Origin: Heterodontus francisci
Taxonomy: Eukaryota
Assembly: GCF_036365525.1 (NCBI RefSeq)
Contig: NC_090414.1
Span: 21,041,846 to 21,105,845 of the forward strand
Direction of reading: 5' to 3'
DNA length: 64,000 nucleotides
Numbering within the stretch: position 1 is the first letter of the stretch; every line of letters begins with the position of its first letter. Under the pieces are notes generated by a model. That model made no database searches and was not told where the DNA came from. It saw only the letters and a list, made by a program, of their open reading frames with translations. Position numbers and translations under genes: made by a program. Shown piece after piece: positions 18,101 through 58,157 of the stretch.

Positions 18101-21100
18101 GTGTGTGTGGGACCCGTACCCCAGTGAGAGTCAGTGTGTGTGGGACTCGTACCCCAGTGAGAGTCAGTGTGTGTGAGACCCGTACCCCAGTGAGAGTCAG
18201 TGTGTGTGAGACCCATACCCCAGTGAGAGTCAGTATGTGTGGGACCCATACCCCAGTGAGAGTCAGTATGTGTGGGACCCGTACCCCAGTGAGAGTCAGT
18301 ATGTGTGGGACCCGTACCCCAGTGAGAGTCAGTGTGTGTGGGACCCGTACCCCAGTGAGAGTCAGTGTGTGTGGGACCCGTACCCCAGTGAGAGTCAGTG
18401 TGTGTGGGACCCGTACACCAGTGAGAGTCAGTGTGTGTGGGCACCCGTACCCCAGTGAGAGTCAGTGTGTGTGGGACCCGTACCCCAGTGAGAGTCAGTG
18501 TGTGTGGGACCCGTACCCCAGTGAGAGTCAGTGTGTGTGGGACCCGTACACCAGTGAGAGTCAGTGTGTGTGGGACCCGTACCCCAGTGAGAGTCAGTGT
18601 GTGTGGGACTCGTACCCCAGTGAGAGTCAGTGTGTGTGGGACCCGTACCCTAGTGAGAGTCAGTGTGTGTGTGAGACCAGTATCCCAGTGAGAGTCAGTG
18701 TGTGTGTGAGACCAGTATCCCAGTGAGAGTCAGTGTGTGTGGGACCCGTACCCCAGTGAGAGTCAGTGTGTGTGGGACCTGTACCCCAGTGAGAGTCAGT
18801 GTGTGTGGGACCCGTACCCCAGTGAGAGTCAGTGTGTGTGGGACTCGTACCCCAGTGAGAGTCAGTGTGTGTGAGACCCGTATCCCAGTGAGAGTCAGTG
18901 TGTGTGGGACCCGTACCCTAGTGAGAGTCAGTGTGTGTGTGAGACCTGTATCCCAGTGAGAGTCAGTGTGTGTGTGAGACCTGTATCCCAGTGAGAGTCA
19001 GTGTGTGTGAGACCTGTATCCCAGTGAGAGTCAGTGTGTGTGTGAGACCTGTATCCCAGTGAGAGTCAGTGTGTGTGTGAGACCTGTATCCAGTGAGAGT
19101 CAGTGTGTGTGTGAGACCTGTATCCCAGTGAGAGTCAGTGTGTGTGTGAGACCTGTATCCCAGTGAGAGTCAGTGTGTGTGTGAGACCTGTATCCCAGTG
19201 AGAGTCAGTGTGTGTGTGAGACCTGTATCCCAGTGAGAGTCAGTGTGTGTGGAACCTCACCAGACACCAGTGAGAGTCAGTGTGTGTGTGAGACCTGTAT
19301 CCCAGTGAGAGTCAGTGTGTGTGTGAGACCTGTATCCCAGTGAGAGTCAGTGTGTGTGTGAGACCTGTATCCCAGTGAGAGTCAGTGTGTGTGTGAGACC
19401 TGTATCCCAGTGAGAGTCAGTGTGTGTGGAACCTCACCAGACACCAGTGAGAGTCAGTGTGTGTGTGAGACCTGTATCCCAGTGAGAGTCAGTGTGTGTG
19501 GGACCCGTACCCCAGTGAGAGTCAGTGTGTGTGTGTGGGACCCGTACCCCAGTGACAGTCAGTGTGTGTGGAACCTCACCAGACACCAGTGAGAGTCAGT
19601 GTGTGTGTGAGACCTGTATCCCAGTGACAGTCAGTGGGTGTGGGACCCGGATCCCAAAGTTGGCAAGAAATGAAGAGGTAAGATTGAAATGCGATCAGGT
19701 GGTGTGAATTGTCTAAAGCTAATCACAATGTAGAGTAAATCAAGTGGGATGAATAGAATAGATCAGATTGGAACAGAGGATTTTAATATGATCAGAACCA
19801 ACATGATTAACAGATGCTAAGCTGGTTATAGGACTGATGGAGAAAAACTGAAAAGGGAGGAGCTGAGTTCGACCAGGCAGAAAGATACAGAACCCTTGTG
19901 AGGCACAGATGAGAAAGGGCCCAGTCACAGCTCCAGTGACACATTGAATCCAAGCATACTGTCTGGGGGCGGGGGGGAAATGACTGTCAGATGACCTGGT
20001 TTGTTTGCGAGTGTGGATAAAGTTTGGGCATTCAGAGCTTGGATTAAAGACTAAAAATCAAGCTCAGAGTGTGAGGTACATCAAACGGGCTGTCAGCATG
20101 TAAGTATACAGACATATTTCCCTTGCCTACGTACTACGAGTGTTGTATTATATGTCTAAGGTTAGATAGAGGCCAAAATCTTACGGTACATGGCCGTGGA
20201 ACCAGTACCCCAGTGAGAGTCAGTGTGTGTGGGACCCGTACCCCAGTGAGAATCAGTGTGTGTGGGACCTGTACCCCAGTGAGAGTCAGTGTGTGTGGGA
20301 CCCGTACCCCAGTGAGAGTCAGTGTGTGTGGGACCTGTACCCCAGTGAGAGTCAGTGTGTGTGGGACCCGTACCCCAGTGAGAGTCAGTGTGTGTGGGAC
20401 TCGTACCACAGTGAGAGTCAGTGTGTGTGAGACCCGTATCCCAGTGAGAGTCAGTGTGTGTGGGACCCGTACCCTAGTGAGAGTCAGTGTGTGTGTGAGA
20501 CCTGTATCCCAGTGAGAGTCAGTGTGTGTGTGAGACCTGTATCCCAGTGAGAGTCAGTGTGTGTGAGACCTGTATCCCAGTGAGAGTCAGTGTGTGTGTG
20601 AGACCTGTATCCCAGTGAGAGTCAGTGTGTGTGTGAGACCTGTATCCCAGTGAGAGTCAGTGTGTGTGTGAGACCTGTATCCCAGTGAGAGTCAGTGTGT
20701 GTGTGAGACCTGTATCCCAGTGAGAGTCAGTGTGTGTGTGAGACCTGTATCCCAGTGAGAGTCAGTGTGTGTGTGAGACCTGTATCCCAGTGAGAGTCAG
20801 TGTGTGTGTGAGACCTGTATCCCAGTGAGAGTCAGTGTGTGTGTGAGACCTGTATCCCAGTGAGAGTCAGTGTGTGTGTGAGACCTGTATCCCAGTGAGA
20901 GTCAGTGTGTGTGTGGGATCCGTACCCCAGTGAGAGTCAGTGTGTGTGGGATCCGTACCCCAGTGAGTGTCAGTGTGTGTGGGACCCGTACCCCAGTGAG
21001 TGTCAGTGTGTGTGGGACCCGTACCCCAGTGAGAGTCAGTGTGTGTGGGACCCGTACCCCAGTGAGAGTCAGTGTGTGTGGGATCCGTACCCCAGTGAGA

Positions 21101-21618
21101 GTCAGTGTGTGTGGGACCCCTACCCCAGTGAGTGTCAGTGTGTGTGGGACCCGTACCCCAGTGAGTGTCAGTGTGTGTGGGACCCGTACCCCAGTGAGTG
21201 TCAGTGTGTGTGGGACCCGTACCCCAGTGAGAGTCAGTGTGTGTGGGACCCGTACCCCAGTGAGAGTCAGTGTGTGTGGGACCCGTACCCCAGTGAGAGT
21301 CAGTGTGTGTGGGACCCGCACCCCAGTGAGAGTCAGTGTGTGTGGGACCCGTACCCCAGTGAGAGTCAGTGTGTGTGGGATCCGTACCCCAGTGAGAGTC
21401 AGTGTGTGTGGGACCCCTACCCCAGTGAGTGTCAGTGTGTGTGGGACCCGTACCCCAGTGAGAGTCAGTGTGTGTAGGACCCGTACCCCAGTGAGAGTCA
21501 GTGTGTGTGGGCACTAGTCCGAAAGCCTTACCCGCACAATTTGTTGCTTCTCGGAGGGCGGCTCATAATCTCCCAGCACCTCCTTCACCACGTGTTTTCT
21601 TTTCGTCGCCTGCGACAT
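3127..21618 (-). CDS. EIF1AD: EIF1AD, eIF1A domain-containing protein (about 170 aa)
   Basis: Coding exons 21618-21532 ([29 protein letters not shown]), 6727-6619 ([36 protein letters not shown]), 4831-4723 ([37 protein letters not shown]), 3854-3813, 3292-3127 (...[16 protein letters not shown]...EEEEGGEV*). GT-AG, phases consistent, 513 nt total. Upstream exon donor at 22564. Confidence 0.96.
4075..4525 (-). mobile_element. Deu-domain SINE, near full length with tRNA-like head
   Basis: Reverse complement of the 565-925 family; head contains gagtcagaaggttgtgggtttgagtcc (B-box-like). Confidence 0.75.
5010..6345 (-). mobile_element. CR1 LINE 3' fragment (degenerate RT)
   Basis: Minus frames give [45 protein letters not shown] and [11 protein letters not shown]. 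Confidence 0.9.
5499..5748. repeat. 35-bp tandem repeat (~7 copies) within the CR1 fragment
   Basis: Unit ccaatactgtacacagtactccagatgtggtctca. Confidence 0.92.
7220..19655. repeat. 33-bp minisatellite/satellite array, segment 1 (EIF1AD intron)
   Basis: Unit ccagtgagagtcagtgtgtgtgggacccgtacc with variable (tg)n (31-39 bp variants); hundreds of copies. Confidence 0.98.
20196..21513. repeat. 33-bp minisatellite array, segment 2
   Basis: Same unit; ends about 18 nt from the donor site of the first EIF1AD coding exon. Confidence 0.97.
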
Positions 21619-24200: not shown

Positions 24201-25681
24201 ATGTCAACATCACAGAAGCACCGAGATTTTGTGGCGGAGCCCATGGGGGAGAAATCAGTCAAGTGCCTAGCTGGTATCGGAGAGATCCTCGGAAAACGGC
24301 TAGAAGATCAGGGATTTGACAGGGTAGGTACTGTGTATAGTTTGTTGTTGAAAGGTCGTCGACCTGAAGCGCTCCAATCTGTAATTACATTGAATTTATA
24401 GCACAGAAGCAGGCCATTCGGCCCACTTAGTCCATGCTGGTGTTTCTGCTCCACATGAGCCTCCTCCCACACCTCTTCATCGCACCCCCTCAGCATGTCA
24501 TTCGATGCCTTTCTCCCTCCTGTGTTTATCCAGCTTCCCCTTAAACGCTTCTAATGCGTTTGCCTCAAATGCAGGGCTCATAACGGTCCTGGGTTGTTTG
24601 TGATCTATCTCAGTGATTTAGACTTAAATGTAGGGAGGGGGTGGGGGGGGGGATGTTTCAGACATTTGTAGATGAGATGGAAATTGGCTGTGTGGTTGAT
24701 CGTGAGAAAAGATAGCTGTAGACTGCAGGAAGATATCAATGGATTGGTCAGGTGGGCAGTGAAGTGGCTAATGCAGTTTAATTGGAGAAGGTGAGGTAAT
24801 GCATTTGGGGAGGGCAAACAGGGCAGGGGAACACAATAAATGGTAGCATTCTCAAAAGTGTAGGGGGAACCTTGGAGTCTACAAGTTCCTGAAGGTAGCA
24901 GGACAGCTCGATAAGGTTAAGATGGGATACGGAATACTTCCCTTTATTGGCCTGGACATAGTTTAGAAGAGCAGGGACGTTACGCTAGAACTTGTGTTAA
25001 ACACTAGTTGGGCTGCAGCTGGAGTACTGTGCACAGTTTTGATCGCTGCTTTACAGGGAGGATGTGATCACACTAGAGACGGTACAGAGGAGGTTTACGA
25101 GGATTTTAGCATGAGGCAGGATTGGATAGGTTGAGGTTGGAACAGAAGAGGCGAAGGAGAGATTTAATTGAGGTATGTTGAGTTCTGTTGTGTCTAGCTG
25201 GAGTGGATAGGACGGACCTATTTCCATTAAGAGGTCAGTAACCAGGGGGCATTGAAAGTAATTGGAAGGATTTGAGGAGTTTTCACTGAGAGGGTGGTGG
25301 GTGTCTGGAACTCGCTGCCTGAAAGGGTGGTAGAGGCAGAAACTCTCAACATTTATATTAAAAAATGGATATGCACTCATTGTACCATAACCCAGAGCTA
25401 TGTTTAGACTGGACAGACTCATTGGGCCAAATATCCGCCTCCTATGCTGTATGTTTCTGCCACTCCCTGTGGCACGGGTTCTGTGTTCTTGCCATTCCTT
25501 GGATAGTCCAGTGAATATATGTTTCTTTCCTCAGGCGTATGTGGTGTTGGGACAGTTCCTGGTCTTGAGGAAGAACGAAGATCTCTTTAAAGAGTGGCTG
25601 AAGGATACGTGCCAGGCCAACTCCAAGCAATCCAACGATTGCCACACCTGCCTAAGGGAGTGGTGCGATGCCTTTCTGTAA
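24201..25681 (+). CDS. BANF1: Barrier-to-autointegration factor, 89 aa
   Basis: Exons 24201-24323 ([41 protein letters not shown]) and 25535-25681 ([48 protein letters not shown]); AATAAA at 26279. Confidence 0.97.
24655..25460 (+). mobile_element. Decayed CR1 LINE fragment in BANF1 intron
   Basis: Recognisable CR1 ORF2 3' motifs (ctggagtactgtgcacagttttg, gtacagaggaggtttac, tggaactcgctgcctgaaagggtggtagaggc) with many stops. Confidence 0.7.
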
Positions 25682-26644
25682 AGCTCCCGGCTGCAGCTCT
25701 CCTCTCCCTCCCTCCCTCTTCCTTTGTACTTTTATCGATCTTAAAATGGTGTTAAATTATCCGCTTTGCCTTTATCTCCACCCCCTCCCCTCCCCTCCCC
25801 CCGCCCCACTTCGTGGTTGACGCCCGGAGGTTTTTTTTTTCTGTCTTTCTCTCTGCTGAAATTGTCATCAATTGCTGCTTTGGTGACTGAGTGACCGTTG
25901 TGAATTGATACCAATGAAGGAATGACCACATGAGCTACACCAGCTAATGTGAGGGGGGGAAACTTGTTTGGCTGATAACGTATGCGCGCACTCACCACAG
26001 CGAGGCCCCCTTGAACCTCCCCCCACCCCGTTCCATTAATTGTAGTGTACACTGTTTGATACCCAGTGCACAGCTCACTCCGCAGAGCTCTTTCTCGCGT
26101 GTGAGCTGGCTTGCTGCTTTCCGAAGCGGGGTGAAGGTGTGCTGAATCAACTTGTGAATCGTTTTATTCATTCTTAACCCTCGGGCTTTTCCCTCCTGAT
26201 CTGACTTCCCCCCCCTTGTACTTTTCACAGTGGGTGAGATTCAGCATCGCTATGGAAACCTGTTATTAAATTTTATATAATAAAACACATTAAAAGTCGT
26301 CTTGTCCTTGTGATTTCCTTCTTTCTGCAGTCTCTCTGCCTTTCCTGACCCTCTGGCACCTCATTCCTGTATAAGGCGAAAGAAGTGAGTGTTGGCCCGC
26401 TATTCAACTGTGGGGGCAGTGTATTTCTGACAGTGGGCCTGGGGAATTAATAATGGAAAACGGGGATGAATTGAACAGATATTTTGATTAGAGATACCCT
26501 TTTAGGGAATATTAGATGCAGGACATGAACTAGATTTACTACAGATCTTTCAGACCTGTAACACAGGTTGTATGCCCACTCTAATAGACTACATCTTTAG
26601 ATGTCACACCTGGAGTAATTTTCAAGCTTTATTAGTTTCTGAAG

Positions 26645-27960
26645 CACTGTCTTCACTGTAGAGGATACAAATAACATCCCAGAAATAATTGTGTATCAGG
26701 AGGTGAAAGGGAGGGAGGAACTTAAAACGTTTACAATCACCAGGGAAAGGGTACTGAAAAATTATTAAAACTAAAAGCTGACAATTCCCCAGGTCCTGAT
26801 GGACTTCATCCTAGGGTCTTAAAAGAAGTGGCTGCTGAGATAGTGGATGCAATGGTTTTAATGTTCCACAATTCCCTAGATTCTGGAAAGGTCCCATCAG
26901 ATTGGAAAATAGTGAATGTGACTCCTCTTCAAGAAAGGAGGAAGACAGGAAGCTACAGACCAGTTAGTTTAACATCTGTCATAGGGAAAATGCTGGAATC
27001 TATTATTAAGGAGGTTATAGCAGGGCACTTAGAAAATCTCAATGCAATCAAGCAGAGTCAACATGGTCTTATGAAAGGGAAATCGTGTTTGACTAATTTA
27101 TTGGAGTTCTTTGAGGAAGTAACAAACAACGTGGATAAGGGGGAACCTGTGGATGCGTTATACTTGGATTTCCAGAAGGCATTTGACGAGGTGCCACATC
27201 AAAGGTTACTGCACAAAATAGGAGCTCATGGTGTTGAGGGTAACATACGAGCATGGATGGAGGATTGGCTAGCTAGCAAGAAACAAGAGTAGGCATAAAT
27301 GGGTCATTTTCAGGTTGGCAAGATGTGATGAATGGAGTGCCACGGGGATCAGTGCTGGGGCCTCAACAATCTATATCAATGACGTGGATGAAGGGACAGA
27401 ATGTCTGGTTGCTAAATTTGCTGATGACACAAAGGTAGGAAAATTAGTTGTGAAGAGGAAATAAGGAAACTGCAAAGGGATTATAGATAGGTTGTGAGTG
27501 GGCAAAAATTTGGTAAATGGAGTATAATGTGGGAAAATGTGAAGTTCTCCACTTTGGCAGGCAGAATAGTAAAGCAGCATATTATTTAAATGGAGAGAGA
27601 TTGCTGAACTCTGAGGTACAGAGGGATCTGTGTCCTGGTATATGAATCACAAAAGATTGATATGCAGATACAAGAGGTGATTAGGAAGGCAAAAGGAATG
27701 TTGTTTATTGCAAGGGAAATGGAATATAAAAGTAAGGATATTTTGCCACAGTTTTATAGGGTATTGGTGAGACCATATTTGGAATACTGTGTACAGTTTT
27801 GGTCTCCTTATTTAAGAATATAAGGTAGATAAATTCTTGACTATCAAGGGAGTCAAAGGGTATCAGGGGGTAGGCAGGAAAGTGGAGTCGGGGCTACAGT
27901 CAGATCTTCCATGATCTCATCAAATGGAAGAGGGGGCCGAATGGCCTACGCCTGACCAAA
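26645..27960 (+). mobile_element. CR1 LINE fragment (RT)
   Basis: SPGPDGLHPRVLKEVA; YRPVSLTSVIGKMLESII; QHG.MKGKSCLTNLLEFF; YLDFQKAFD; KFADD. Confidence 0.92.
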
Positions 27961-27974
27961 AGTTCAGTGAAAGA

Positions 27975-28300
27975 AGTAGGTTTTTAAGGAGCGTCTTCAA
28001 GGAGGAGAGAGGCGGAGAGGTTTAGGGAGGGAATTCCAGAGCTGAGGGACCCAGGCAGCTGAAGGCACGGCCGCCAATGGTGGAGCGATGGGAAATCGGG
28101 GTATGTGCAAGAGGCCAGAACTGGGGCAGTGCAGAGATTTCGGAGGGCTGGAGGAGGTGAGGGAGATAGGGAGAGACGAGGCCATGGGTCAATTTGAAAG
28201 CCCGGGTGAGAATTCCAGAAGTGAGGTTTTGCCGGACCGGGAGCCGGTGAGTAAGCACGGGATGATGGGTGAGCGGGACTTAGTGCAAGTTGGGATACAG
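27975..28300 (-). mobile_element. L2-like LINE 3' fragment
   Basis: Minus frames give IGGRAFSC and LWNSLPKPLR, an L2-type ORF2 end; related copies at ~21800, 33360, 60120, 60360. Confidence 0.65.
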
Positions 28301-30132
28301 ACAGCAAGAGCTTGGGTTTTATTCTACGTTAGCAATGGTCGCTCACAAAATCTGGCTCTGTGTCATGTGGTGTGTGTCCCTTTAAGTCCATAAGGTTCTG
28401 TTACTCAGCTATTGCGGAGGCCACTGCTCGGGTCACAGGGCACATCTTGCAGCTGTAATCCTGTGTTTGAATGCGGGTTTCCACAGCATCGCAGCTGCTG
28501 CTGGTGGACGCTCTGGTAGGTGGTACTGCAGCTGGAGTGGGTTTTTTTTTAGGGTGAGGATTATGAAGCTTTGATGGATAGAAATGTGGCCCTACTGCAT
28601 ACAATTCCGGTCTCAAGGAAGCATGTATTTTCCTTAGACTGTGCACAACGCAGGTTCACTGGACTGATTCTTGGGATGAGTGAGTGGTCCGACGAGGAGA
28701 GATTGAGCACACGGGGCCGATATTCCCTGTAGTTTAGAAGAATGGGAGGTAATCTCATTGAAATGTACAAAATTCTTAAGAGGGCTTGATAGGATAGAGG
28801 CCGAGGGGCTGTTTCCCCCTTGCTGGAAAGTCTAAAATGGGATTGTCCAACATCCGGCCCACCAGTCTACCTGTGGCTCAGCTCTGATTAACAATTCCCA
28901 TGTACGGGGGGGAGCAGTGACAGGGGGAGAGGGATGGGGGCAGGAGAGAGACAGAAAGGGGAGGAGAGTCATAGAGTCATTTACTTACAGCACAGGAGGC
29001 CATTTGACCCATCAAGTCCACGCCAGCTTCCTCATATTCCCCCCTGCGTCTTTTGCACAAAACTTTCAATGCGTCCCCTAAAGGGGAGGGAAGAGAGAAC
29101 GAGAGACACACACACGTACAGCACTGGGAGAGGGGGGGGGGGGGGGGGTGGGGGAAGAGAGATCAAGGTCTCTCCTGAAAGGTGGACATCTCTCCAGAAT
29201 ACTCTGTATCGCTACATCAAGTGTCCGGGCAGAGACTGACTACTTATTAAAGCAAACAAAATGCCTGGTACGTCACTAAATCAGTTTTCAATATAGTGAC
29301 GAGAAAGTAAGTGCATAAATTAATCTTGTCATTTAAAGCTTCTTCACAAAAATGTACATTTGTTGTTTTTATTAGTGAGATAAATTTTTAATGCCTTTAT
29401 CTTTCGAAATTTGCTCAACGAACCCCCGGGCCGAGCAAAAACTCACAATGCGGCCCTCAGCCTGAAAAGGGTGTTAACCCTGGTATAGAACGAGGGGGCA
29501 TAGTCTCAAGGTAAGGAGTTGGCCATTTAGCAATGTCTTCACTCAGAGGGTTGTCAACCTTTCGGTTTATTGACCGGCCGGAGAGCTGTGATTGCTGAGT
29601 CTTTGAGTATATTCAAGGCTGAGATCGATAGGGTTTTGGGGGCGCTAATGGAGTCACAGGAAGTGGAGTTGAGATAGACAATCAGCCATGATTTTATTAA
29701 ATGGTGGGGGCCAGATACGAGGGGCCAAATGGCCTCCCCCTCCTATTTCTGAAGTTTCTGGGAGATGAACGGCCTCCATTATGGCGGGCAGCTTGGTGCA
29801 AGGCTCGTGACAAGCCAGATGCGCACAGCCTCCCACATTGACAGCAGCCACAAACGTGGGTGTGCAGTGCCTGTCCCTGCATCAGTATCATGTGCCCCCC
29901 TCCCCTCCCCCATGCACACACAGGTGGGGTGGGCTGAGAGGTCACAATGGGCAGTTACCCATACCTGCTGGTCAGTCCTGAGTGATGCTGACACCATAAT
30001 GGCTGACCTCACTATACTGGGGTTTGCACCTCACTGCAACACCACACTGATCCCAGCAACCGGCAGAAAGTGGACTTGGCTTACAAAGAGGACAAAGCTA
30101 CTGCAGTTAGTGCAGCTGATTGGGAATCAAAG

Positions 30133-33051
30133 ATGGAATTGCGAGCATCTGCCGTTACTGATTTCAACATAGATAAAGGTGAGAGGGTGTTAACGGAGGG
30201 GAGAGCTATTTTAGGGAGGAATCTTTTATATTAGATACAGAGTAAAGCTCCCTCTACACCGTCCCCCATCAAATACTCCCAAGACAGGTACAGCACAGGA
30301 TTAAATACAGAGTAAAGCTCCCTCTACACTGTCCCCATCAAATACTCCCAGGACAGGTACAGCACGGGGTTAGATACAGAGTAAAGCTCCCTCTACACTG
30401 TCCCCCATCAAACACTCCCAGGACAGGTACAGTATGGGGTTAGATACAGAGTAAAGCTCCCTCTACACTGTCCCCCATCAAACACTCCCAGGACAGGTAC
30501 AGTACGGGGGTTAGATACAGAGTAAAGCTCCCTCTACACTGTCCCCCATCAAACACTCCCAGGACAGGTACAGCACGGGGTTAGATACAGAGTAAAGCTC
30601 CCTCTACACTGTCCCCCATCAAACACTCCTGGCTCAGGGATGTTAGATGATCTCATCCTATCTTCAGTTGACATCCAATGCATGAAAGTTTCTACAGGAG
30701 ACACTGGATAGCCATGAGGAGCAGGTCCCGGGCTCCTTTGGCCCCTTCTCCTGCCCTGGGATCTGAGACTAGCTGTGTCCTCTTCTAAGTGCTGCCTTCA
30801 GCAGAGACTGCCTAACTTTAACTTGGCAGTAGAGCTTGCTCCTGCAGTATGTAAAAGCCCCAAACTGATTGTGAATCAATTGTTAAACCAGTATCCAAAC
30901 AGCGTGTGTTTTTTTTTTGCACACAAGGAAGAGGTTTGGGGTGAGGACAGGAGAGACTGAAAAACACAATTAGGGAGAGGGACTGAAAAATAGAGGTAAA
31001 GAGAGGAGGCAAATGTGACAGAGACTGGGAGAAAGAGATAGAAAGATGGAGATAAACAATGACAGATGAACAGAGTGAAAGACAAACAGGGATGGAGAAA
31101 TGGAGGGAGGTGTCACACAACCTGGGTGTACTGATTAATATAGATTGATTTATCAGTCTGTCTCTCAGTCTAGCTTTCTCCTTTAATCTTTCTCACTCTC
31201 TCTCTCTCTCTCTCCGTCTCTCACTGTCTGTAACATATCAGCCTAATCCTACCTTCGTTGTTGAAGGGTTTCAGAGAACCTGTTGCCTCCTTTTCCCCGG
31301 TCACTCCCCCCTCCCAGGCCCTGTCCCTCATCTCTCTCTCTCGCCCTCAATTCCAGTCCTGCTCTATCCCCATGGTTACTCACTCTCTCACCTTTTTTTC
31401 CTCTGACACCAATTTTGATCACTGTCAAGAACCTCTCACCGCTTCATTCTCTCCATCTCACTATTTCTTTCGCTCTGCCACTCTCCATCACTCACTTTCT
31501 CCATCTTTTTGTGTCTTTTATTCATTGTCTCCCTCTGTACGTGTCCCACTCTCCCTCTTTGTGTCTCTCTCTCCCTCAGTCTTTCTCTCTCCCTCTGTCT
31601 CTCTCACCTTCTACCTGTCTCTCTCCGTCTGTTTCTCTCTCACCATCTCTCTCTGTCTTTCTCACAGTCTTCTCTCTCAGTCTCTCTCTCTCCCTTTCTC
31701 TTTACATTGACTGTTCCAGATGTCAGTGACCATAAACCCCTCTGCACTGTGTTCAATTCTGGGCATGAGGGAGGGATGAGGGAGGGCAGAGGGTCTAATT
31801 GGATAGATAGGCACAAACACGATGGGCTAAATGGCCTGCTGCTGTGATGGTATGAACATGGAGCTGGTGGTGTCTCTGTGGGACTGCTGCCCTTGTCCTT
31901 CTAAGCAGTGGAACTTGCCGGTTTGGTGGTAAAGATTTCATCGGTCCCAGTGCCTCCCCTGGCATCTGCTCTCCTCTCACTAACTGTGTGTCTCTCTCTC
32001 TCTCGCTGCCTATTCCAGACCACCCTCCTAGCTATCCCACGGCCCACACAACATCGCAAAAGCACAAGAACTTTGTGGTGGAGCCCATGAAGGAGAAGTC
32101 TGTGAAGGAGCTGGCAGGTATCGGCCTGGTCCTGGGAGGGCGCCTGGAAGAGAAGGGCTTCTGCAAGGTGAGGCTTCGGGCTCGCTGCCCTGGTGGGGTG
32201 GGGTGGGGGGTCACAGGGTGAGTGTCACAGTGCACAGGACATGTGGCGCGGAGGGGGCTGGTGGACTGAACTTGCCTTTTGCTAAACCGCACCCACCCAA
32301 TTGTCCTCTTCAAACTCATGATGTAAGACGACAAAGCTCATCCTTAGTTGCCCTTTGAGAAGGTTGGAAGTGGGTCTCCCTCTGGATTTTGACCCAGCGG
32401 CGATGACGGAATGGCCAATATATGGGCAGAAGATCTAGGCTGACATTCCCAGTGTCAGTACCGAGGGAGTGCTGCACTGTCAGAGGCGCCGGCTTTCAGA
32501 TGGGACATGAGGAGGGGGCCCCCCCGTCAGCCCTCTCAGGTGGATGCAAAAGATCCCACGGCCACTATTTTGAAGAGGGTGGGCTCTCTCTCCCCAGTGT
32601 CCTGCTCCGATGTTTAGCCCTCAGATCACATTGCTCTGTGGGATCTTACTGTGCGCAAATCGTCTGCCCAATCTTGATGCCAAGTGACTTCAAAAATGAA
32701 TGGACTTTGTGGCTGAGCTCGGGCAGGTCAGGCCTGAGCCCAAAGGTACCCTGGGGACTGTGTGGATGGGGCCACTATGCTTAGTGTTGCATTATATATA
32801 ACATGCGCGCATACGAGAGTTTGTGCGTGCGCGAGTACTGAGATGCTTTTTGTGTGCCGAGTAGACTGTTGTTTTAATCCCTTTTGATCGGTCCCTGTTT
32901 CCAGGCCAAAGACGTGCTGGGCCAGTTCCTACTACTGAAACAGGATAAAGCTGCCTTCAAAAGCTGGATGAGGCAGGTGTGTTACGCGGGGAACCGGCAA
33001 TCAGAAGACTGTTACCGCTGCCTCAGAGAGTGGTGTGATGCCTTTCTTTAA
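30133..33051 (+). CDS. BANF1-like tandem paralog with N-terminal extension (about 113 aa predicted)
   Basis: Well-supported exons 32019-32167 ([49 protein letters not shown]) and 32905-33051 ([48 protein letters not shown]), same intron position as BANF1; AATAAA at 33199. The first coding exon 30133-30178 (aagATGg, [15 protein letters not shown], phase-1 gtgaga donor) is inferred. Confidence 0.85.
30230..30630. repeat. 70-bp satellite array (~5.5 units)
   Basis: Unit gttagatacagagtaaagctccctctacactgtcccccatcaaacactcccaggacaggtacagcacggg. Confidence 0.95.
32440..32700 (+). mobile_element. Deu-domain SINE fragment
   Basis: gagggagtgctgcactgtcagagg...caggtggatgcaaaagatcccac...gtgggatcttactgtgcgca. 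Confidence 0.7.
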
Positions 33052-33514
33052 AAGGCCTCCTACCTCGCTTAATTCACAGAGTAATAACCTCCTCGAAAAT
33101 GTCCCAATAATCCTTAAGTGTTATTTATTGATCTTTGCAGCCCAAGGTCACGAGGGGGCTTCCAGATTTTATGCTGTGTGTTTAAAAGCTGATTTATTAA
33201 TAAAACTGGCAGGCGTCAGTCTGTTTCCAAGACGAACAGCTTCCATCTTGTCCAGAAACAACATACGTAAAGACTTGCATTTTAGCGCCTCTGATGTGAC
33301 CATTAGAAACGTGACAGCAATGGAGAGAGATATCAGGTGCCTAAACAGCACGGTCTGAAGTAGATTTTAAGGAGGAAAGAGGCGGATAGATTTAAGGAGG
33401 GGATTCCAGAGCTCAGGGCCCCCCAGGCAGCTGAAGGCACGGCCGCCAATGGTGGAGCGATGGGAATCGGGGGATGGGCCAAGAGGCCGGAATTGGAGGA
33501 GCGCAGAGATCTCG

Positions 33515-34751: not shown

Positions 34752-34956
34752 TTAGATACAGAGTAAAGCTCCCTCTACACTCTCCCCCATCAAACACTCC
34801 CAGGACAGGTACAGCACGGGGTTAGATACAGAGTAAAGCTCCCTCTACACTCTCCCCCATCAAACACTCCCAGGACAGGTACAGCACGGGGTTAGATACA
34901 GAGTAAAGCTCCCTCTACACTCTCCCCCATCAAACACTCCCAGGACAGGTACAGCA
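34752..34956. repeat. 70-bp satellite array (~3 units), truncated by the Tx1 insertion
   Basis: Same unit as 30230; breaks off at ...caggacaggtacagca. Confidence 0.95.
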
Positions 34957-35622
34957 TTGGGGTTGGCTGCTGTCTAATTGGTGTGTTGACTGCTGGTTGC
35001 AGCAACAAGCCTCAGCTGAGAGTGCTGGTGGCAGTTGGAGGTTGCTGAGGTGGAGAGAGCAGCTACACTGAGCAGCGGAAAGCTTTAACAATCACCATTA
35101 AAGAGAAGAGTCTTTTTGTTGGAACCAAGGCTTTGTCTGGAGGTGGGGGCTGAACACCAGTAATTTACTTTACTTTGGACTGTTGGGGGAAGAACAAGTG
35201 GCCGGAACAACAAGGGGTGGGGCTGCCAATTCAGCAGGAATCTGTGCTGCTGCAACAAGCACACAGGGAAGCTCCCTCCCCACACCAATTGCCCAACCTG
35301 GGTCAGCTGAAGCTATCCGGCTAAAGAGACGGAAGGGGATAGATAGTGCCTGGGCAGCTTCAGCTGACTCAGGTGAAGATACCTCCCTCAACCAGAAGAC
35401 CGGAAGACCAAGTGTGCTGGCATTGACTGTTTTAAGTGTGCTGTGTGCACCACCTCCGGAAAGCAAGTCATCCCTTACAGCCTGTCTTTCCCTCTCCTCC
35501 ATACCCTCAGCCTCTCCCCTAACATGTTGTTTGTTTTTTATAGATATTTAATATCTTCTATGAATCTTTTTGTTATTCGGTTTGCAAGCCCACAATTTGG
35601 GGTGGGTTTAGCTGTTAGACCC

Positions 35623-37565
35623 ATGGCAAGCCCTTCATCACCGGTGGCGGGGCCCTCTACAACCTATGCAGCTGCAGCCTCTGTGGCTGCCCACGTGGCC
35701 CCGTCACCCTTTAAATTGATAACATCCAGCCATGGGGTGAAGAGCTATCCCCACCCCAACATGTCCATTGAGGCCTGCATAAAGGCAATGGCCAAGGTTG
35801 TCAGCCCTTCGGCCATTGTTGCAGCTTCAAAGATGTACGGGAAGGCTGTGTTCTTCCTGAAGACCGAGCGGGTGGTGTCCCTGGCCCTGAGTAAAGGGAT
35901 CACTGTGGGGGGGACCTTCCTGCTGGTGGACCCTCTGGGGGCCACTGCGCAGCGGATCATGCTATCAAACGTCCCGCCCTTCATTCCCAGTGAGCTCCTC
36001 CTCCCCCACCTACACCATCTGGGGGAGGTGAGGTCGGAGATCACCCCAATCCCGCTCGGTCTTCGGGAGCACAGCCTCCAACATGTCTACTCCTTCCGCC
36101 GCCAGCTATTTGTGCAGCTGGCAGAGAGCCACTTCAGTGTGGAGTTCCAGGGGAAGGCCTATTGTGTCTTCTGGACCTCGGACGGGGTGCGCTGCCACGT
36201 CTGCAACCTCCCGACCGCCAACTCCATCTCGGCGTCCCAGTGTGGCGCCACTGCACCTCCTCCCACTCCCCCAAAATCTCCTACAGACACCGCTCAGTTG
36301 GTTCCGGAGGCTGTGATTTTCAAGGCCTCCGGCAGGGAGGGGAGTGCCCATCCGGGTGGAAGGAAGGCACGGAGGAAAAATAAACATCAAGAGGCGCATC
36401 GCCTGGACACATTGACACAACCCGAGCCTGAGCTCAGCCCAAGGCCCGATCTTGGGGAGCCCACTTGCCCCAGGGCTGGGCTCAGGCCTTGGGTGACTAA
36501 AAAAAAGGAGGGTGCTGAGGTGGAGGCCTCTGATGACATGGAGGTCTCTGAGCCTCTGCGCCCAACTGGGAAAAAGAGAAGGCACCCCTCCACAGAGGTA
36601 ACACAGGGCCATGAGGTGCAGGGCCCATCTGTTGGAGGGGAGCTGCCTCCTGTTTCGGGTCCCCAGGTTCCCCCTGCCACCACCCATCATCAAGGCTGCA
36701 AAGTCTGAGCAGGAGCTCCCTACCCCTCAGGATGGAGGGGAGGGGAGGGGGAGGCCCCTCCTGGAGGAGTAAGTGGAGGCCTGCTTGTGGTGGGGGAGCC
36801 TGGGGACGCATCCCATTCTGCCACTTGGTCAAGTGCCCTGAGTGGAGGGGAGGGCAGGGCCCCAAAGGGTCGGCCCTCCCGTCCGGAGTCCACCACCAAC
36901 CAGGAGATACCCCACCCAGTTGTAATTGAAAATTTTGTCCCATCTGCTGGGTCTGTGGGTGCTGGCTGAGCAGGAGATGGCCTCCTCTCTTCACCTCTGG
37001 TCCCGGCTCCAGCTGCATTTCCGGAGTTGGGAAGTTCCGTCTTCCCTGGACCGCTCATTGGCCTGGGGACGAAGGTGGAGGGGGGGGTCCTGAACCGCTG
37101 ACGCCCACAGGCTCCGGGTTCACAGTAGAACCCAGAGAGGACTCCTCTGCCATCGATCCTGGGGGTGGGATCGTGACGGAGGCGGGACCAGCTGGTACGG
37201 CCAGGACGTCCAGCCCACAGTGTGTGGTGGGTGTGCCAGCCGCTGGCGGTGACGACCCGGAGGAGGATGGGGATTCGGTGTGGGGCACGGAGGACGACCT
37301 TGATTCCATTGCCAGTGAGGTGGTGGAGTCCCTCATGCCTCCCACCGAGTCTCCTCACATCCCCACGGCGGAACTCCGGGATTTCCTCGCAGCTTGCAGG
37401 GGTTGCCGCAATAAAGTTCAGCTACCCCTCGGCCGTTGGTCGAATCTGGCGCTGATCATCCAGTCCGTCCGTGCCGCCCTCAAGAAAGTGGGCAAGGGTG
37501 CGGGCGTAAAACTGGTTGAGAGGCGCCGGTTTAATGTGTTCCTCAATGGGTTGCTGGAGGAGTGA
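35623..37565 (+). pseudogene. Tx1 ORF1 (RRM/zinc-knuckle nucleic-acid-binding protein), disrupted
   Basis: Tx1-type ORF1 motifs; knuckle reduced to CHVC; broken over frames 35443-36708, 36787-36969, 37173-37565. Confidence 0.8.
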
Positions 37566-37633
37566 AAGGCCAGGTGCACTTCCGCTCCCTCCTCACAGTG
37601 AGCTGTTGGTGACGGGTTTTAAGTACCTTTGAC

Positions 37634-40600
37634 ATGAAGATAACCATAGCCAGCCTCAACATCAACGGCAGCAGGGGGTCTCACCGCAGATTTCACAATC
37701 TCACAGTCCTCAGGGAAGGGAGATACGCGGTGAGCTTTCTGCAGGAAACCCATACCGTTCCGGGAGACGAAGCCACCTGGCTCCAGGAATGGCAGAGTGG
37801 GGTCTACATGAGTCACCTCACCCCTATTTCTAGTGGGGTGGCCCCGACTTTTCAGCCGGAGATCTTGGGGGTCAAGGAGCTAGTGCCGGGCCACTTGCTC
37901 CACCTCGTCGTTCGCCTGGGTAGCGTGCCGCTCCACTTTGTGAACGTGTACACGCCCAGGCCCGGCGCGTTGCGAGCGCGCTTCTTTGAAGAAGTGTCCG
38001 CTCTCTTGAGCTCCATCGATAGCGGCGAGTGCATCATCCTCGGGGGGGATTTTAACTGCACCCTCGAGGTGGGGGATCGCTCCGGTCCCCAGTGCGGCCA
38101 AGCGTCGGTGGAGAAGTTGAGGGAACTGATCAGCTCCCTCAACTTGTTGGACGTCTGGCGGAATCTCCAACCCGACTCCAGCGCCTTCACGTGGAGGTCT
38201 GGAGGAGGAGGGTCCCGAATTGACCACCTTGACATTTTACAGGCGTACGTCTCCCGCAACTCGGCGGCCTCCATGTGGCTGGTGCCGTGCTCGGACCACC
38301 ACCTGGTGTGGGCAGAGTTTAATCCGCTCCGCACGCGGACGGGGTCCGCGTACTGGCACTTTAACAACCGGCTGCTGGAGGATGAGCGATTCCGGGACTC
38401 GTTCTGTCGATTCTGGGCCGACTGGAGAAGGAAGCAGGGGGGGGGCTTCCCCTCCTTGAGGCTGTGGTGGGATGTGGGCAAGACTCACATTGTGGCAGGC
38501 GTACAAAGAGAAGGGCGCGCTGAGGGACCTGCAACTCATAGGGTCCCTAGGCGCGTACGTGAGGTCACGGATCCAGATCCTGGAAGATTTGGACCGCGCC
38601 TCACCCTTCTCGCTGGAAAAATGGAGAGGGGTCCGTAAGGAGCTCATCGAGCTGCTGGCCGAGGACGGATCCTCCATCACGGATCTGGAGGGAATGGGCC
38701 CCCTGGTCCGTACTTATTACAGTGCTTTGTTCTCTCCAGATCCGTCCAGCGAGGATACGCACAGAGTTTTGTGGGAGGACCTGCCGCTTTCAGACTCGGG
38801 CCGCATTTCGTGGCCCGGGTCCGACTTTTATACGCCGCCGCAGAGTGTCTAGTCAAAGTTAACGGGTCCTTGACGGCACCCCTTCAATTTGGGAGAGGAG
38901 TGTGTCAGGGATGCCCCATGTCCGGCCAACTGTACATCATCTGCGTGGAGCCCTTCCTGTGCCTGCTTCGCAGGAGGTTGACAGGATTGGCTCTGCGCGA
39001 GCCAGCCATGCGGGTCGTCCTCTCGGTTTGGGCCGATGACGTGCTCCTCGCGGTCACAGATCCCGTTGACTTGCGGAGGATGCGCGACTGCCAGCAGAAC
39101 TTTTCTGCCACATCCTCCGCGAAGATCAATTGGGAGAAATGTTCCGGTCTCCTGGTGGGTCAGTGGCGGGTGGACTCCCTGCCGGAGGAGATGACACCTT
39201 TTGCGTGGAGCACCACGCACCTCCTCTATTTGGGAGTTCACCTTAGCCCCGCTGAGGAAGCCTGGCTGGTAAACTGGCAGGAGCTGGAGTGAAAGTCACC
39301 GCTCGGCTGGGGCGCTGGACAGGACTACTCCGAGTGCTTTCCTACAGGGGCCGAGTGCTGGTCATAAACCAACTGGTGGCCTTGATGCCGTGGTACTGGT
39401 TGGTCATTTTAGCCCCGCCCCCTGCATTAGCCACCAAGATCCAGAAGAAACTCGTCGATTTCTTCTGGGGCAAGAGGAAACACTGGATCCCTGCTGCGGT
39501 CCTGAGTCTCCCGATTGAGGAGGGCGGCCAGTCGCACCCAGGCTGCGACTCTCCGCCTTCGGACCCTGCAGAGATATCTGTATGTCGAGCGTCCTCCCAA
39601 ATGGTGTGCGCTGGCGACGTATTTTTTCCGCAGTGTCATTGCCTTCAAGACGACACGCAGCTCCCGGCGGAGACCGTTAGCCGCGCCACTCTGAGGGAGT
39701 TGCCTGTCTTTTACCAGGATCTACTTTGAGTCTGGAACATGGTCGCCTCCAGTCAGGGCGCTCCCCCGCTGGCGGAGGAGAGCGCCTCGGCTGTCCGGGC
39801 GGCCAACTCCGGGGACGGACCGGCAGGCGGAGGAATAGCCGAAGCCCCCGGGACGCCCCTCACTGCGGGTGGCGAGGGGGCGCGGGACAGCAGACTGCTC
39901 CTGGCCAAGCTGCTCCCTGCTCGGCCGGAACTGCTGATCGGACCCAGGTCCCGAAACCCTCCTCGGAGCCGGTCCCGCACAACCCGAGCCGCCTCTCAGA
40001 AACGCCCTCCGTGCCATTCCAATCGGCACGGAGGGGTTTCCTGTACGGGCTGGCTGCTCCTGCACACTCTCCACTTCCTCGCCCTCGTCAGCCGACCGGA
40101 CACGCCCTGGTGGTCCGCGTTGCCATCTGGCGGCGAGGGGAAACCCCGATGGAGGTCTCTCTACGCGGGAGTCTTCCCCCTTTACATCGGGGACCTGGGA
40201 TGGAGGGTGTTGCACAGGGCAGCCCCGTGCAATAGACTTTTAAGTAGGTTCACGGACTCCCAGGCCACCTGTACTTTCTGCGGCCTGGATGAGTCCGTGT
40301 TCCATGTAAATATGGAGTGTGCGAGGTTGCAGCCCCTATTTGAGTATTTGAAGGGGCTGCTCCTCAAGTTCTGGCTGCACTTCAGTCCCACGCTCCTGAT
40401 CTTTGGGCACCCGGTGCGATGGGGCGTGGGCCGGGAGGAGGATCTCCTCGTCGGTCTGCTGCCGGGCCTGGCCAAGGTGGCAATTCACAGGTCCAGGTTG
40501 CGGGCTGTCGGGGGGGGGGGTCCGTCCTCCCTGATTGCGCAGTTACGTTTGCCCCGGGTGTCCCTGGAGAAGGAGCATGCGGTGTCCGCTGGTACGCTTG

Positions 40601-40674
40601 AGGCCTTCCGTGACCGGTGGGCACCACAGGGACTGGAGTGCATTGTCGACGCCGAGAATGGCATTTTAATTTGA
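37634..40674 (+). pseudogene. Tx1 ORF2 (APE endonuclease-reverse transcriptase), frameshifted with internal deletions
   Basis: SLNING, FLQETH, GGDFNC, SRID, SDHH (APE); GVCQGCPMSGQLY and WADD (RT); CTFCGLDESVFHVNMEC (zinc finger). N-terminal RT motifs are missing near 38790. Confidence 0.9.
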
Positions 40675-44600: not shown

Positions 44601-46526
44601 TCCCCCTCCCTTTTTTCTTTCCCCTCACTCTCCCCTCCCCATCTCTCCCTTCGTTCCTTCCCCACTCCGCCCCTCCCTTTTTTCTTTCCCCTCACTCCCC
44701 CCTCCCCATCTCTCCCTTCGTTCCTTCCCCACTCCCCCCTCCCTTTTTTCTTTCCCCTCACTCCCCCCTCCCCATCTCTCCCTTTTTTCCTTCCCCACTT
44801 CCCCCTCCCTTTTTTCTTTCCCCTCACTCCCCCCTCCCCATCTCTCCCTTTGTTCCTTCCCCACTCCCCCCCTCCCTTTTTTCTTTCCCCTCACTCCCCC
44901 CTCCCCATCTCTCCCTTCGTTCCTTCCCCACTCCCCCATCCCTTTTTTCTTTCCCCTCACTCCCCCCTCCCCATCCCTCCCTTTTTTCCTTCCCCACTCC
45001 CCCCTCCCTTTTTTCCTTCCCCACTCCCTTTTTTCTTTCCCCTCACTCCCCCCTCCCCATCTCTCCCTTCGTTCCTTCCCCACTCCCCCCTCCCTTTTTT
45101 CTTTCCCCTCACTCCCCCCTCCCCATCTCTCCCTTCGTTCCTTCCCCACTCCCCCCTCCCTTTTTTCTTTCCCCTCACTCCCCCCTCCCCATCTCTCCCT
45201 TCGTTCCTTCCCCACTCCCCCCTCCCTTTTTTCTTTCCCCTCACTCCCCCCTCCCCATCTCTCCTTTTTTTCCTTCCCCACTCCCCCCTCCCTTTTTTCT
45301 TTCCCCTCACTCCCCCCTCCCCATCTCTCCCTTTTTTCCTTCCCCACTCCCCCCTCCCTTTTTTCTTTCCCCACTCCCCCCTCCCTTTTTTCTTTCCCCT
45401 CACTCACCCCTCCCCATCTCTCCCTTTTTTCCTTCCCCTCACTCCCCCCTCCTCCCTCTTTTCCTTCCCCTCACTCCCCCCTCCTCCCTCTTTTCTTTCC
45501 CCTCACTCCCCCCTCTTTTCTTTCCCCTCACTCCCCCCTCCTCCCTCTTTTCCTTCCCCTCACTCCCCCCTCCTCTCCCTCTTTTCTTTCCCCTCACTCC
45601 CCCCTCTTTTCTTTCCCCTCACTCCCCCCTCTTTTCTTTCCCCTCACTCCCCCCTCCTCCCTCTTTTCCTTCCCCTCACTCCCCCCTCCTCTCCCTCTTT
45701 TCCTTCCCCTCACTCCCCCCTCCTCCCTCTTTTCTTTCCCCTCACTCCCCCCTCCTCCCTCTTTTCTTTCCCCTCACTCCCCCCTCCTCCCTCTTTTCTT
45801 TCCCCTCACTCCCCCCTCCTCCCTCTTTTCTTTCCCCTCACTCCCCCCTCCTCCCTCTTTTCTTTCCCCTCACTCCCCCCTCCTCCCTCTTTTCTTTCCC
45901 CTCACTCCCCCCTCCTCCCTCTTTTCTTTCCCCTCACTCCCCCCTCCTCTCCCTCTTTTCTTTCCCCTCACTCCCCCCTCCTCCCTCTTTTCTTTCCCCT
46001 CACTCCCCCCTCCTCCCTCTTTTCTTTCCCCTCACTCCCCCTCCTCCCTCTTTTCTTTCCCCTCACTCCCCCCTCCTCCCTCTTTTCTTTCCCCTCACTC
46101 CCCCCTCCTCCCTCTTTTCTTTCCCCTCACTCCCCCCTCCTCCCTCTTTTCTTTCCCCTCACTCCCCCCTCCTCTCCCTCTTTTCTTTCCCCTCACTCCC
46201 CCCTCCTCCCTCTTTTCTTTCCCCTCACTCCCCCCTCCTCTCCCTCTTTTCTTTCCCCTCACTCCCTCCTCCTCGCACCTGCTGGCTGGCGGACAGCACC
46301 CTCCGCACTTTGCTGTAATAAACATCGTTGGACTGGCGGTTGAAGGCCTTGACGGCCACGGAGGCCGCACTCAGCACCGCCGGATCCTGGACAGGCAGGG
46401 GCGAGAGGCCGCCGGGCATAACGGCCTGGCCGGGCATGCTGGGGTCGCTTTCGCCGCCGGCCGGGAGCAGGAGCAACAACACGGCGGCGCCCAGCAACTT
46501 GGCCCAACTCTCACCGCAGCCGCCAT
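41699..46526 (-). CDS. Type 2 cystatin, probably cystatin E/M (CST6) ortholog; start codon ambiguous
   Basis: Exon 1 ~46526-46279 (signal [18 protein letters not shown]; [15 protein letters not shown]...[22 protein letters not shown]), exon 2 42037-41915 ([20 protein letters not shown]...[11 protein letters not shown]), exon 3 41791-41699 ([30 protein letters not shown]). G, QVVAG and PW motifs, four Cys, three-exon layout; AATAAA (minus) at 41256-41261; CST6 neighbours BANF1 in human. Confidence 0.88.
42740..46272. repeat. Polypyrimidine/polypurine minisatellite in cystatin intron 1
   Basis: Almost G-free plus strand; units such as cttttctttcccctcactcccccctcctccct (32 bp) and longer composite units. 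Confidence 0.95.
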
Positions 46527-46605
46527 CTTCAATACGCAGCCGGAATTCCACTTCCGCCCGCACTGGAGTCACATCCGCCCCGCTGCCGCTGATCCGCCAT
46601 CTTTG
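46520..46605 (-). promoter_or_regulatory. Promoter elements of the cystatin gene
   Basis: Two YY1 consensus motifs (cgccatctt at ~46521 and ~46596), ETS cttccg at 46551, GC box ccgccc; CpG-rich. Confidence 0.55.
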
Positions 46606-48287
46606 TGAGGGCAAACCGGCCAACACCATAGAAGCCACCCCAGCTAGTGCAGACACTAGCAGCGACTTGTTGGACCGAATGGCCTGTTTCCATACTGTAA
46701 AACGCTGGGTAATTCGATGTAAATCAGGGAAGGCAGGCTGCAGGGCCGAGGCCTTCTGCCATGTATTTTCATTCTGGCTCCAGGGCTGAGGGACTTGGGA
46801 GAGACTGGGAGAAGCTGGGATTGAGCAGAGAAGGTTAAGAGGAGATTTAATAGAGGCGTTCAAAATCATGAAGGGTTTCGAGAGAGTAAATAAGGAGAAA
46901 CTGTTCCCCGTGGCAGGAAGGCTGGTAACCAGAGGGACACAGATTTAAGATAATTGGACAGAGGGGGGGGGGGGGAGAGGAGGAGATTCACCATGAATGA
47001 GAGATGCTGTGGGGCACACGCTCAGTCCAAGAGGGGCAACCGACATCAGAAATAAACCCCAACTGTCAGCATGATCATGGTTCAGTCCTGAATGTGATTA
47101 ACAGCAACAAGTCGAATCCAACCCTTGTAATCACCTGTGACCTCGCTGGTGTCTCAGCAGGTCGGATAACTGAGTGAATCCCTTGAAGTGGGCTGTTGTG
47201 ATCTGGAATGCGCTGCCTGACCGGAGAGTGGAAGCATTCGGCGCCTCTCAAAAGGCAACTGGATAAATACTTGAAAAGTAAAAAACAACTGCAGGGTTAT
47301 GGGGAAAGAGCGGGGCGGGTTTGGGAAACGATTTTGGAATCATCTTTCAAAGAGCCGACACAATGGGCCAAATAGCGGCCTCCTGTCCGGTACAGTTCTG
47401 TGACACCGAGGAGGACTCGCTTAATCTTCTAATAGTTGGCCGTGGGATCCTTTATGCCCACCGGATGTGCAGTTATCCAACTTTGGGATAACTTTCGCAG
47501 TTTCTTGCATGCTGGGAGCAGGGAGCACCCTCAGCTGAACGCCGACTACCCTACCCTACACGACAGTAATAAAACCAGCTCTCCCAGTGGTCAGTAAAGC
47601 ACGAGTCATTGGAAAACTTCCCCTAAAAATGTCTTTATTCAGAGTGAGATGGTCAATCACGCTCCCCCCCCCCCCCCACCACCACCGAATACATTCTCCC
47701 GTCTCCACATGCCACCGAGTCTCATTAACAGCAGCAGAGGGGGGAGGGGAAAGCAACAACGGAGAAGACTGGCATCTTCCTAGATTATTATCTACACAGA
47801 TTTCAACACACACGACGATTCTCCCGGCCAGTACAGGCGAGGCTCCCTCCGCCGACTCGAAACCGAAAATTCTGGCAAGACGAGAGCGCGGAATTCTTTC
47901 CCGAAAAAAATTGTGGGTTTTTTCTCAAATTTTATTTCACATTTTACTAAAAGTAAAAATTTAAAATAATGCCAAGTGGGTCAGCCACTGGTGACTTCTG
48001 CACAAGTGCATGGCCCACCTCACTCATCTTTGCCATCCTTTCTCTCTCTCTCTCTCATTCTCTCTCCATCCACTTATTTTTTGGAAGGGAGGGGTATCAG
48101 AGGGCTGTGTTTTTGGAAGGGGGGGGGAATTCCGTGCACAGAGTAAACACCGCGAGGGGATAAAATAGTTTAAGAACTGCAACTCAAGACGCAGTAAATA
48201 AAACAACCCGAGAGGAAGCTAAACCCCAGAGGAACAAATATGAAAAAAAATACATCTGGAAAGAAGAAACAGACGCGCTCACAAACA

Positions 48288-57371: not shown

Positions 57372-58157
<786 letters not shown>

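Follow-up and report, generated by a model that had tools for sequence, protein, structure and literature searches.

Downstream of BANF1 in Heterodontus francisci lies a second, intact BAF-family gene, which is very probably a real, conserved gene distinct from BANF2. We read it as a tandem duplicate of BANF1 whose product is a putative DNA-binding and DNA-bridging BAF, with a likely weaker hold on LEM-domain proteins and lamin A/C and a likely restricted tissue distribution; we hold this reading, built on sequence comparison, with moderate confidence. What is already known is that such genes stand in the databases under automatic names, and what appears to be new is their recognition as a distinct, conserved third BAF paralog. 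Positions refer to the window, i.e., the whole stretch of 64,000 nucleotides that was analysed, and papers are cited for those portions of them that were accessible.

Scanned for motifs in six frames, the window shows two BAF loci, namely BANF1 (89 aa) and the paralog (Table 1). Both core exons of the paralog exceed the curated Pfam SAM_BAF cut-off in a profile search and the paralog is therefore not a chance resemblance; its ortholog P0002 scores 130.5 bits against a cut-off of 25. The spliced frame is open over 113 aa, with 24 extra residues, His in place of Met1, and then the BAF core. This agrees with the earlier note, which had described an intact second BANF gene with His for Met1 and the same intron, here after codon 41. 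The spacing of ~6 kb given there is right for the first core exon, 6.3 kb from the BANF1 stop, but not for the ATG exon, which lies ~4.5 kb from it. The proposal of a phase-matching ATG exon at 30133 adding ~24 aa is supported by the conservation of its peptide: it shares 12 of its 15 residues with P0002, the ortholog of the white shark, while the next best among the 1253 ATG-started 15-mers of the window reaches 5/15. The exon has a single match within its own genome, and the context of its ATG is AAAGATGG.

Table 1. Features of the BANF1 and paralog loci in window positions
Feature	Position	Strand	Remarks
BANF1 coding exon 1	24201..24323	+	donor also spliced rarely to the paralog acceptor at 32019
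BANF1 coding exon 2	25535..25681	+	parent gene
Paralog coding exon 1	30133..30178	+	ATG, 15 codons plus 1 nt; ends AAAG/GT, phase-1 GT donor at 30179
Paralog intron 1, GT..AG	30179..32018	+	contains the tandem array and the CT-rich tract
70-bp tandem array	30231-30629		within paralog intron 1
CT-rich tract	31549-31701		within paralog intron 1
Paralog exon 2	32019..32167	+	9-residue linker, His at position 1, BAF residues 2-41; acceptor TTCCAG
Paralog intron 2, GT..AG	32168..32904	+	737 nt; phase 0, follows codon 41 like the BANF1 intron
Paralog exon 3, coding part	32905..33051	+	BAF residues 42-89, then TAA at 33049-33051
AATAAA	33199..33204	+	likely paralog polyadenylation signal; RNA contigs end at 33152-33218

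Four sequencing runs of one sample, of unrecorded tissue and taken as RNA because their contigs skip GT..AG introns, carry about one third of the words of 32019-33200. Each of the four has one contig that spans paralog exons 2 and 3 with 0 mismatches and with intron 2 (32167/32905) spliced out, so the splice sites of these exons work. No contig of this one sample shows the 30178-32019 junction that had been predicted, and exon 30133-30178 is uncovered, which does not imply silence; restricted expression fits the absence of the paralog's own transcript in a single sample. In the only upstream junction listed, the BANF1 donor is instead spliced to the acceptor of the paralog (24322 to 32018, GT..AG). 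This joint was found in three of the four runs with a depth of 4-6, whereas the regular BANF1 joint reaches 747-1189 in the same runs, although contig depth reflects expression level poorly; the shorter side of the joint has 29 letters, below the 31-letter rule. The read-through is out of frame and meets a TGA at 32088, which lies 77 nt ahead of the final junction, and thus is likely a target of decay. The same stop overlaps the ATG of Met15, the residue at which two database models (75 aa) start. One could take the paralog, on the strength of that sole upstream junction and its early stop, for a non-functional copy present only in BANF1 read-through and destroyed by nonsense-mediated decay. 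This is scarcely credible: the frame is open, the ATG exon is conserved, the core is 83-97% identical in eight compared species including a chimaera, and the RNA comes from one sample only.

Searching with exon 3 retrieved four proteins among five candidates, 77-94% identical, which are cluster representatives; their clusters have 22 members, with at least 17 named species among the 21 listed, comprising sharks, rays, a skate, a sawshark, and the chimaera Callorhinchus, for which the profile search gave a further copy, P0023. A peptide of the same length, opening M[DE][LF]R and matching window exon 1 at 6-12 of 15 residues, is present in 11 of the 22 ortholog records, the remaining 11 beginning elsewhere. 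Carpet sharks and the chimaera have a Met directly before the BAF core as well, which would allow a form of 90-91 aa in these species. In five batoid records the contigs of the paralog and of BANF1 have equal lengths and are read as one and the same contig, with accessions adjacent or near-adjacent in three, so the tandem layout is likely conserved. The databases name these orthologs “barrier-to-autointegration factor A-like/B-like” (e.g., XP_041035892.1, XP_055487774.1), automatic names that do not mark the paralog as distinct, with start models that disagree and range from 75 to 210 aa. The paralog, present in sharks, rays, and a chimaera, is older and more widespread than could be seen in the earlier note.

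Outside the cartilaginous fishes, the non-exhaustive searches found no ortholog in bony vertebrates. In the profile search 8000 candidates were scored, of which 805 proteins had E ≤ 1e-15; among the best 120 of these, which were inspected, scores drop to the ordinary BAF level (≤144 bits, ≤67% identity) past five chondrichthyan and two internally duplicated proteins. The latter two high scorers, P0022 from a saury and P0024 from krill, are internally duplicated ordinary BAFs and were rejected as orthologs. No single-domain match above 63% identity stood among the top rows of the representative search. On a signature of eight sites, every one of the 22 paralog records scores 7-8; of 304 other proteins, 302 score no more than 3, and the two exceptions, each of 76 aa, score 5.

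The genome itself (6.0 Gb, 2306 contigs) has eight BAF profile matches out of 109 candidates. Four are on contig C44, two exons each of BANF1 and the paralog; two on C13 form a third intact BAF gene; and two on C40 are an intronless, frameshifted copy of the C13 gene, identical at 255 of 268 aligned bases. At a distance of 3.6-4.0 Mb from the C13 gene there are RRBP1-family and PET117 matches, a loose synteny with the genes we take to be the neighbours of human BANF2. The paralog is not at this RRBP1/PET117 locus, since on C44 it adjoins BANF1 and a gene with an eIF-1a domain (exon at 6617-6730, minus strand), while downstream of it are cystatin, Bles03, and Rel-homology exons. By eye, the likely first coding exon of the eIF-1a-domain gene is near 21520-21618, head-to-head with BANF1. 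From human gene order, this neighbourhood presumably fits the 11q13 surroundings of BANF1. The human gene is placed at 11q13.1 (PMC13443024, in the part available).

A tree was built under LG+G4 from 89 columns and 60 rows, i.e., 57 named proteins chosen from 326 plus the three genes of this genome. All 17 paralog rows form one clade with support 100/100, a stem of 0.40, and short tips. A BANF2-like clade of 15 rows (97/93) includes the C13 gene with fish and lizard proteins, the fish and lizard rows being labelled by similarity and mammalian BANF2 being absent from the tree. The two clades are separate in the best tree, which attaches the paralog stem among molluscs, likely a long-branch pull. 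The separation is not enforced by the AU test, which rejects no attachment (p 0.22 for the BANF2-like rows, 0.42 for BANF1 of chondrichthyans, and 0.32 for BANF1 as a whole) and so permits joining the BANF2-like rows. Because the placement is unfixed, the BANF1 origin of the paralog rests on its position and on diagnostic sites: at the 16 sites where BANF1 and BANF2-like proteins of chondrichthyans differ diagnostically, the paralog has the BANF1 state at eight, the BANF2 state at none, and another state at eight. Most likely, then, the paralog is not BANF2, with which the separate C13 gene groups, although tree tests leave its attachment unfixed.

Between species the paralog core is as close to the window copy as BANF1 is, with 95% against 91% identity in a skate, 97% against 92% in Hypanus, 94% against 93% in Mobula, and 97% against 89% in Pristis; the chimaera core is 83% identical. 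These values (94-97% for the paralog, 89-93% for BANF1) and the distances between the two window genes (dN 0.31, dS 1.41, the latter near saturation) point to purifying selection. Eight paralog positions have states found in no other row of the 60-row set. As read from the sequences, change came in a burst, and strong constraint set in afterwards. The description of the paralog as an independently evolved, specialised BAF variant is supported by its single clade (100/100), its conservation in 17 species, and its own contact changes; heterodimerisation with BAF, a modulator role, and germline expression, also proposed there, would be candidate properties.

Structure prediction gave a BAF fold for the core. 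In an AlphaFold2 model of the skate ortholog P0001 from 96 rows, 72 residues have pLDDT ≥ 90 and residues 1-23 are below 50; the model matches human BAF 1ci4_B with E 1.3e-10 and an rmsd of 0.9 Å over 88 columns, from an alignment rich in ordinary BAFs. It supersedes a weak earlier model from 15 close orthologs (mean pLDDT 60). The 24-residue extension, with its conserved M[DE][LF]R start, is predicted to be disordered.

Published contact lists were mapped onto 17 paralog and 19 BANF1 rows. The twelve substitutions noted earlier are all correct relative to human BAF (A12V, G16K, E28L, Y43K, V44D, E56K, D57A, L58A, E61S, D65Q, N70G, and R75E), and TTSQK, GIG, and LREWCDAFL are kept, as was also said. 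R75E, though right against the human protein, had been overstated: Arg75 is present in only 8 of the 19 BANF1 rows, and window BANF1 has Asn75. Similarly, the contrast drawn between the kept GIG and BANF2 stands for the tetrapod-type protein but not for the shark BANF2-like gene, which has G25 and G27 in 9/9 rows.

The expected alteration of LEM and lamin contacts is seen throughout the clade. In the LEM site (R37, F39, Q48, V51, L52, L58, E61, W62), F39, Q48, L52, and W62 are invariant, V51L is found in all rows and R37K in 16/17, but L58 is replaced by A/S/V/T and E61 by S/C/N/T in 17/17, variably within the clade; at the level of sequence, this surface is not intact. In the lamin A/C site (V11, A12, P14, E83, A87, F88), V11, P14, and E83 are invariant, F88 is present in 16/17, and the remainder is kept or conservatively changed, except that A12 is replaced by V/L/G/S in all 15 covering rows, again variably. 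Both contact lists come from the accessible part of PMC6212729.

The DNA-contact set, taken from an AlphaFold-based list (PMC13712952, in part), is kept at S4, Q5, K6, A24, G25, G27, V29, L30, and Q73, with R or K at 72: G25 and G27 are found in all 17 rows, Q5 and K6 in 15/15 covering rows, and S4 in 14/15. Changed are E28, mostly to hydrophobic residues, N70, which is G in 16/17, and residue 75, acidic in 17/17. The residues of the switch between phosphorylated T3 and K72, as described in the accessible text of PMC8053085, are kept. Residue 16 is K or R in every paralog row and G in 19/19 BANF1 rows, but K/R16 is not peculiar to the paralog, being present in 24 of 304 other proteins of the BAF family. 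Human G16R, according to the available part of PMC10099716, binds dsDNA with sevenfold higher affinity (Kd 16 vs 117 nM) and lamin threefold more weakly, and forms a salt bridge to the Leu89 carboxylate of the other subunit. The net core charge is +4/+5 in 15/15 full paralog cores and -3 to 0 in 18 of 19 BANF1 rows; compared with chondrichthyan BANF1, the paralog core is more basic by 5-8 charges.

The paralog might instead resemble mammalian BAF-L, binding DNA weakly on its own and dampening BANF1 through heterodimers. BAF-L heterodimerises and binds DNA weakly (PMC13443024, in part), N70G and the acidic residue 75 stand on the DNA face, and L58 and E61 are changed. Moreover, the BANF2-like gene of sharks has diverged little (72% identity to human BAF, with G25, G27, L58, and N70 kept), so a modulator role may be free. 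We nevertheless consider this reading doubtful, because S4-Q5-K6, G25, G27, L30, and Q73 are kept, residue 75 is something other than Arg in 11 of the 19 BANF1 rows as well, the core is far more basic, and Lys16, a point absent from the earlier note, mimics the gain-of-affinity variant.

A further cluster of changes lies on or beside the helix that holds G47, where K/R43, D44, and Q54 are fixed in 17/17 paralog rows against Y43, V44, and K54 in 19/19 BANF1 rows. In the model, where this helix spans 42-52, a single helical turn separates position 43 from G47, and we assume that Y43 contacts the partner subunit in BAF; the literature search found no paper stating a role for Tyr43. G47 is described as the centre of the dimer interface (PMC6212729, accessible part). 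With these changes the dimer helix could have been rebuilt, such that the paralog pairs only with itself or a new partner and works apart from BANF1. We regard this as unlikely, since G47, L50, P14, and D86 are invariant, F88 is present in 16/17 and L89 in 15/17 rows, and no paper was found that states the assumed partner contact of Y43. Rather improbable, too, is that the paralog is a near-equivalent BAF kept for tissue- or stage-specific supply (subfunctionalisation): the fold is unchanged and the residues that contact DNA, lamin, and LEM domains are for the most part retained, but the long stem followed by stasis and the eight unique positions argue against it.

Our preferred reading, a DNA-bridging BAF loosened from the envelope, would run as follows. 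BANF1 would have been duplicated in tandem before the chimaera-elasmobranch split, placed at ~420 million years ago (PMC6238376, in part), and the copy would have changed rapidly before being held as tightly as BANF1. DNA binding is suggested by the kept S4-Q5-K6, G25-G27, V29-L30, and R/K72, by the loss of the acidic E28, and by Lys/Arg16, which would form a salt bridge to the partner's C-terminal carboxylate like that of human G16R. Weaker tethering to the envelope is suggested by the changed and variable L58, E61, and A12. The paralog is probably dimeric and would be a natural analogue of L58R, which abolishes LEM binding with DNA bridging kept (PMC5638020, in part), i.e., DNA would be bridged without LEM binding. 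Control of the VRK1 type would be kept, given T3, S4, and the basic residue 72. Use in the germline is a guess by analogy with BAF-L, drawn from the accessible parts of work on mouse BAF-L (PMC8877947) and fish banf2 (PMC8268354). A bolder version, which we put forward only tentatively from the sequences, is a separation-of-function BAF of cartilaginous fishes, independent of BAF-L, that would bind and compact DNA more tightly, through its fixed counterpart of the human G16R disease allele and its basic surface, release LEM proteins and lamins, and have been kept for a step of germline chromatin compaction for >400 million years.

Several residues bear on these proposals from the other side. 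With L58A/S a side chain is lost, which may have a milder effect than L58R, and F39, Q48, L52, and W62, as well as V11, P14, E83, and F88, are kept, which counts against weak tethering. N70G and the acidic residue 75 belong to the DNA-contact set and could lower DNA affinity. The fixed Y43K/R, V44D, and K54Q lie by the G47 helix, and the dimer needed for bridging may differ.

The usual account of BAF in vertebrates is of a single essential gene and BAF-L, and A12, G16, and L58 are the sites of human progeria, of neuronopathy, and of the standard LEM-blind mutant. Among the open papers partly surveyed, none was found that describes this paralog, and the supplements of PMC3964593 and PMC13188829 contain no BAF term. 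The closest relative is BANF1/BAF (Pfam PF02961), with which the paralog shares the fold, the intron position, the T3/S4 phosphorylation sites, the G25/G27 hairpin, G47, and the C-terminal WCDAFL, at 61% identity to the neighbouring BANF1 and 64% to human BAF. It differs in its 24-residue extension from an extra coding exon, in charge (+5 vs -1), in the fixed K/R16, K/R43, D44, Q54, K/R56, and Q65, in G70 (16/17), and in the relaxed A12, L58, and E61.

BANF2/BAF-L is likewise a divergent second BAF-family gene kept in addition to BANF1; it is testis-enriched, heterodimerises with BAF, and binds DNA weakly (PMC13443024 and PMC8877947, each in part), and by analogy a germline or modulating role is possible for the paralog. 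Unlike BANF2, the paralog has a different locus, the BANF2-like gene being on C13, and in the best tree a different clade; it keeps the DNA-binding hairpin, and has 0/16 BANF2-type states. With the human variants G16R, A12T, and L58R it shares the three changed positions, K/R16 being chemically equivalent to G16R; unlike them, its states are fixed or tolerated across a vertebrate class, and A12V/L/G/S and L58A/S/V/T are substitutions other than those tested. The paralog is a variation on a known protein, and a third BAF paralog fixed across cartilaginous fishes would offer a natural experiment in which DNA bridging is uncoupled from nuclear-envelope tethering.

The BANF1 donor at 24323 is joined at low level to the start of exon 2 of the paralog at 32019 among the RNA contigs (one sample), and in this read-through transcript the frame is lost, with a stop at 32088 that overlaps the ATG of Met15 of the paralog, the residue at which two 75-aa database models start.

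The cystatin, Bles03 and Rel-homology coding stretches agree with the gene neighbourhood of human BANF1. The 33-bp array sits in an intron of an eIF-1a-domain (EIF1AD-like) gene (between exons at ~21520–21618 and 6617–6730). The retroelement has an ORF1-like frame and endonuclease and reverse-transcriptase domains, its frames being broken, and the 70-bp unit is very abundant among the RNA contigs (one sample).

Features of the window and BANF2-like loci elsewhere in the genome
Feature	Location	Strand	Remark
33-bp-unit array	window 7221–21511		14.3 kb, 424 copies
70-bp unit, four separate tandem arrays	window 30231–30629, 34752–34964, 50819–51290, 63384–63739
Non-LTR retroelement	window 35377–40674	+	between paralog and cystatin gene
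Cystatin	window 46225–46944	−	coding stretch
Bles03 (C11orf68-like)	window 57372–58157	+	coding stretch
Rel-homology (RELA-like)	window 60679–63421	−	coding stretch
BANF2-like gene	L005 1510–1635, L002 1495–1641; C13 23.26–23.28 Mb	− (L005, L002)
Retrocopy of BANF2-like gene	L006; C40 7482730–7482974		intronless, frameshifted

In the paralog clade, Callorhinchus is represented by no fewer than three distinct proteins (P0004, P0020, P0023), which suggests further duplication within chimaeras. Two unnamed 76-aa BAF-family proteins, P0263 and P0320, have 5/8 signature states in common with the paralog (K43, D44, Q54, K56, and E75), a likeness that may reflect either convergence or a distant relationship.

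The BANF2-like gene on contig C13, which has a 15-kb intron, shares 72% identity with human BAF. Its retrocopy on contig C40, identical at 255 of the 268 aligned bases, implies that the C13 gene would be transcribed in the germline; retrocopies of BANF1 or of the paralog were absent among the own-genome BAF profile matches listed. Unlike tetrapod BAF-L, the C13 gene retains G25, G27, L58, and N70.
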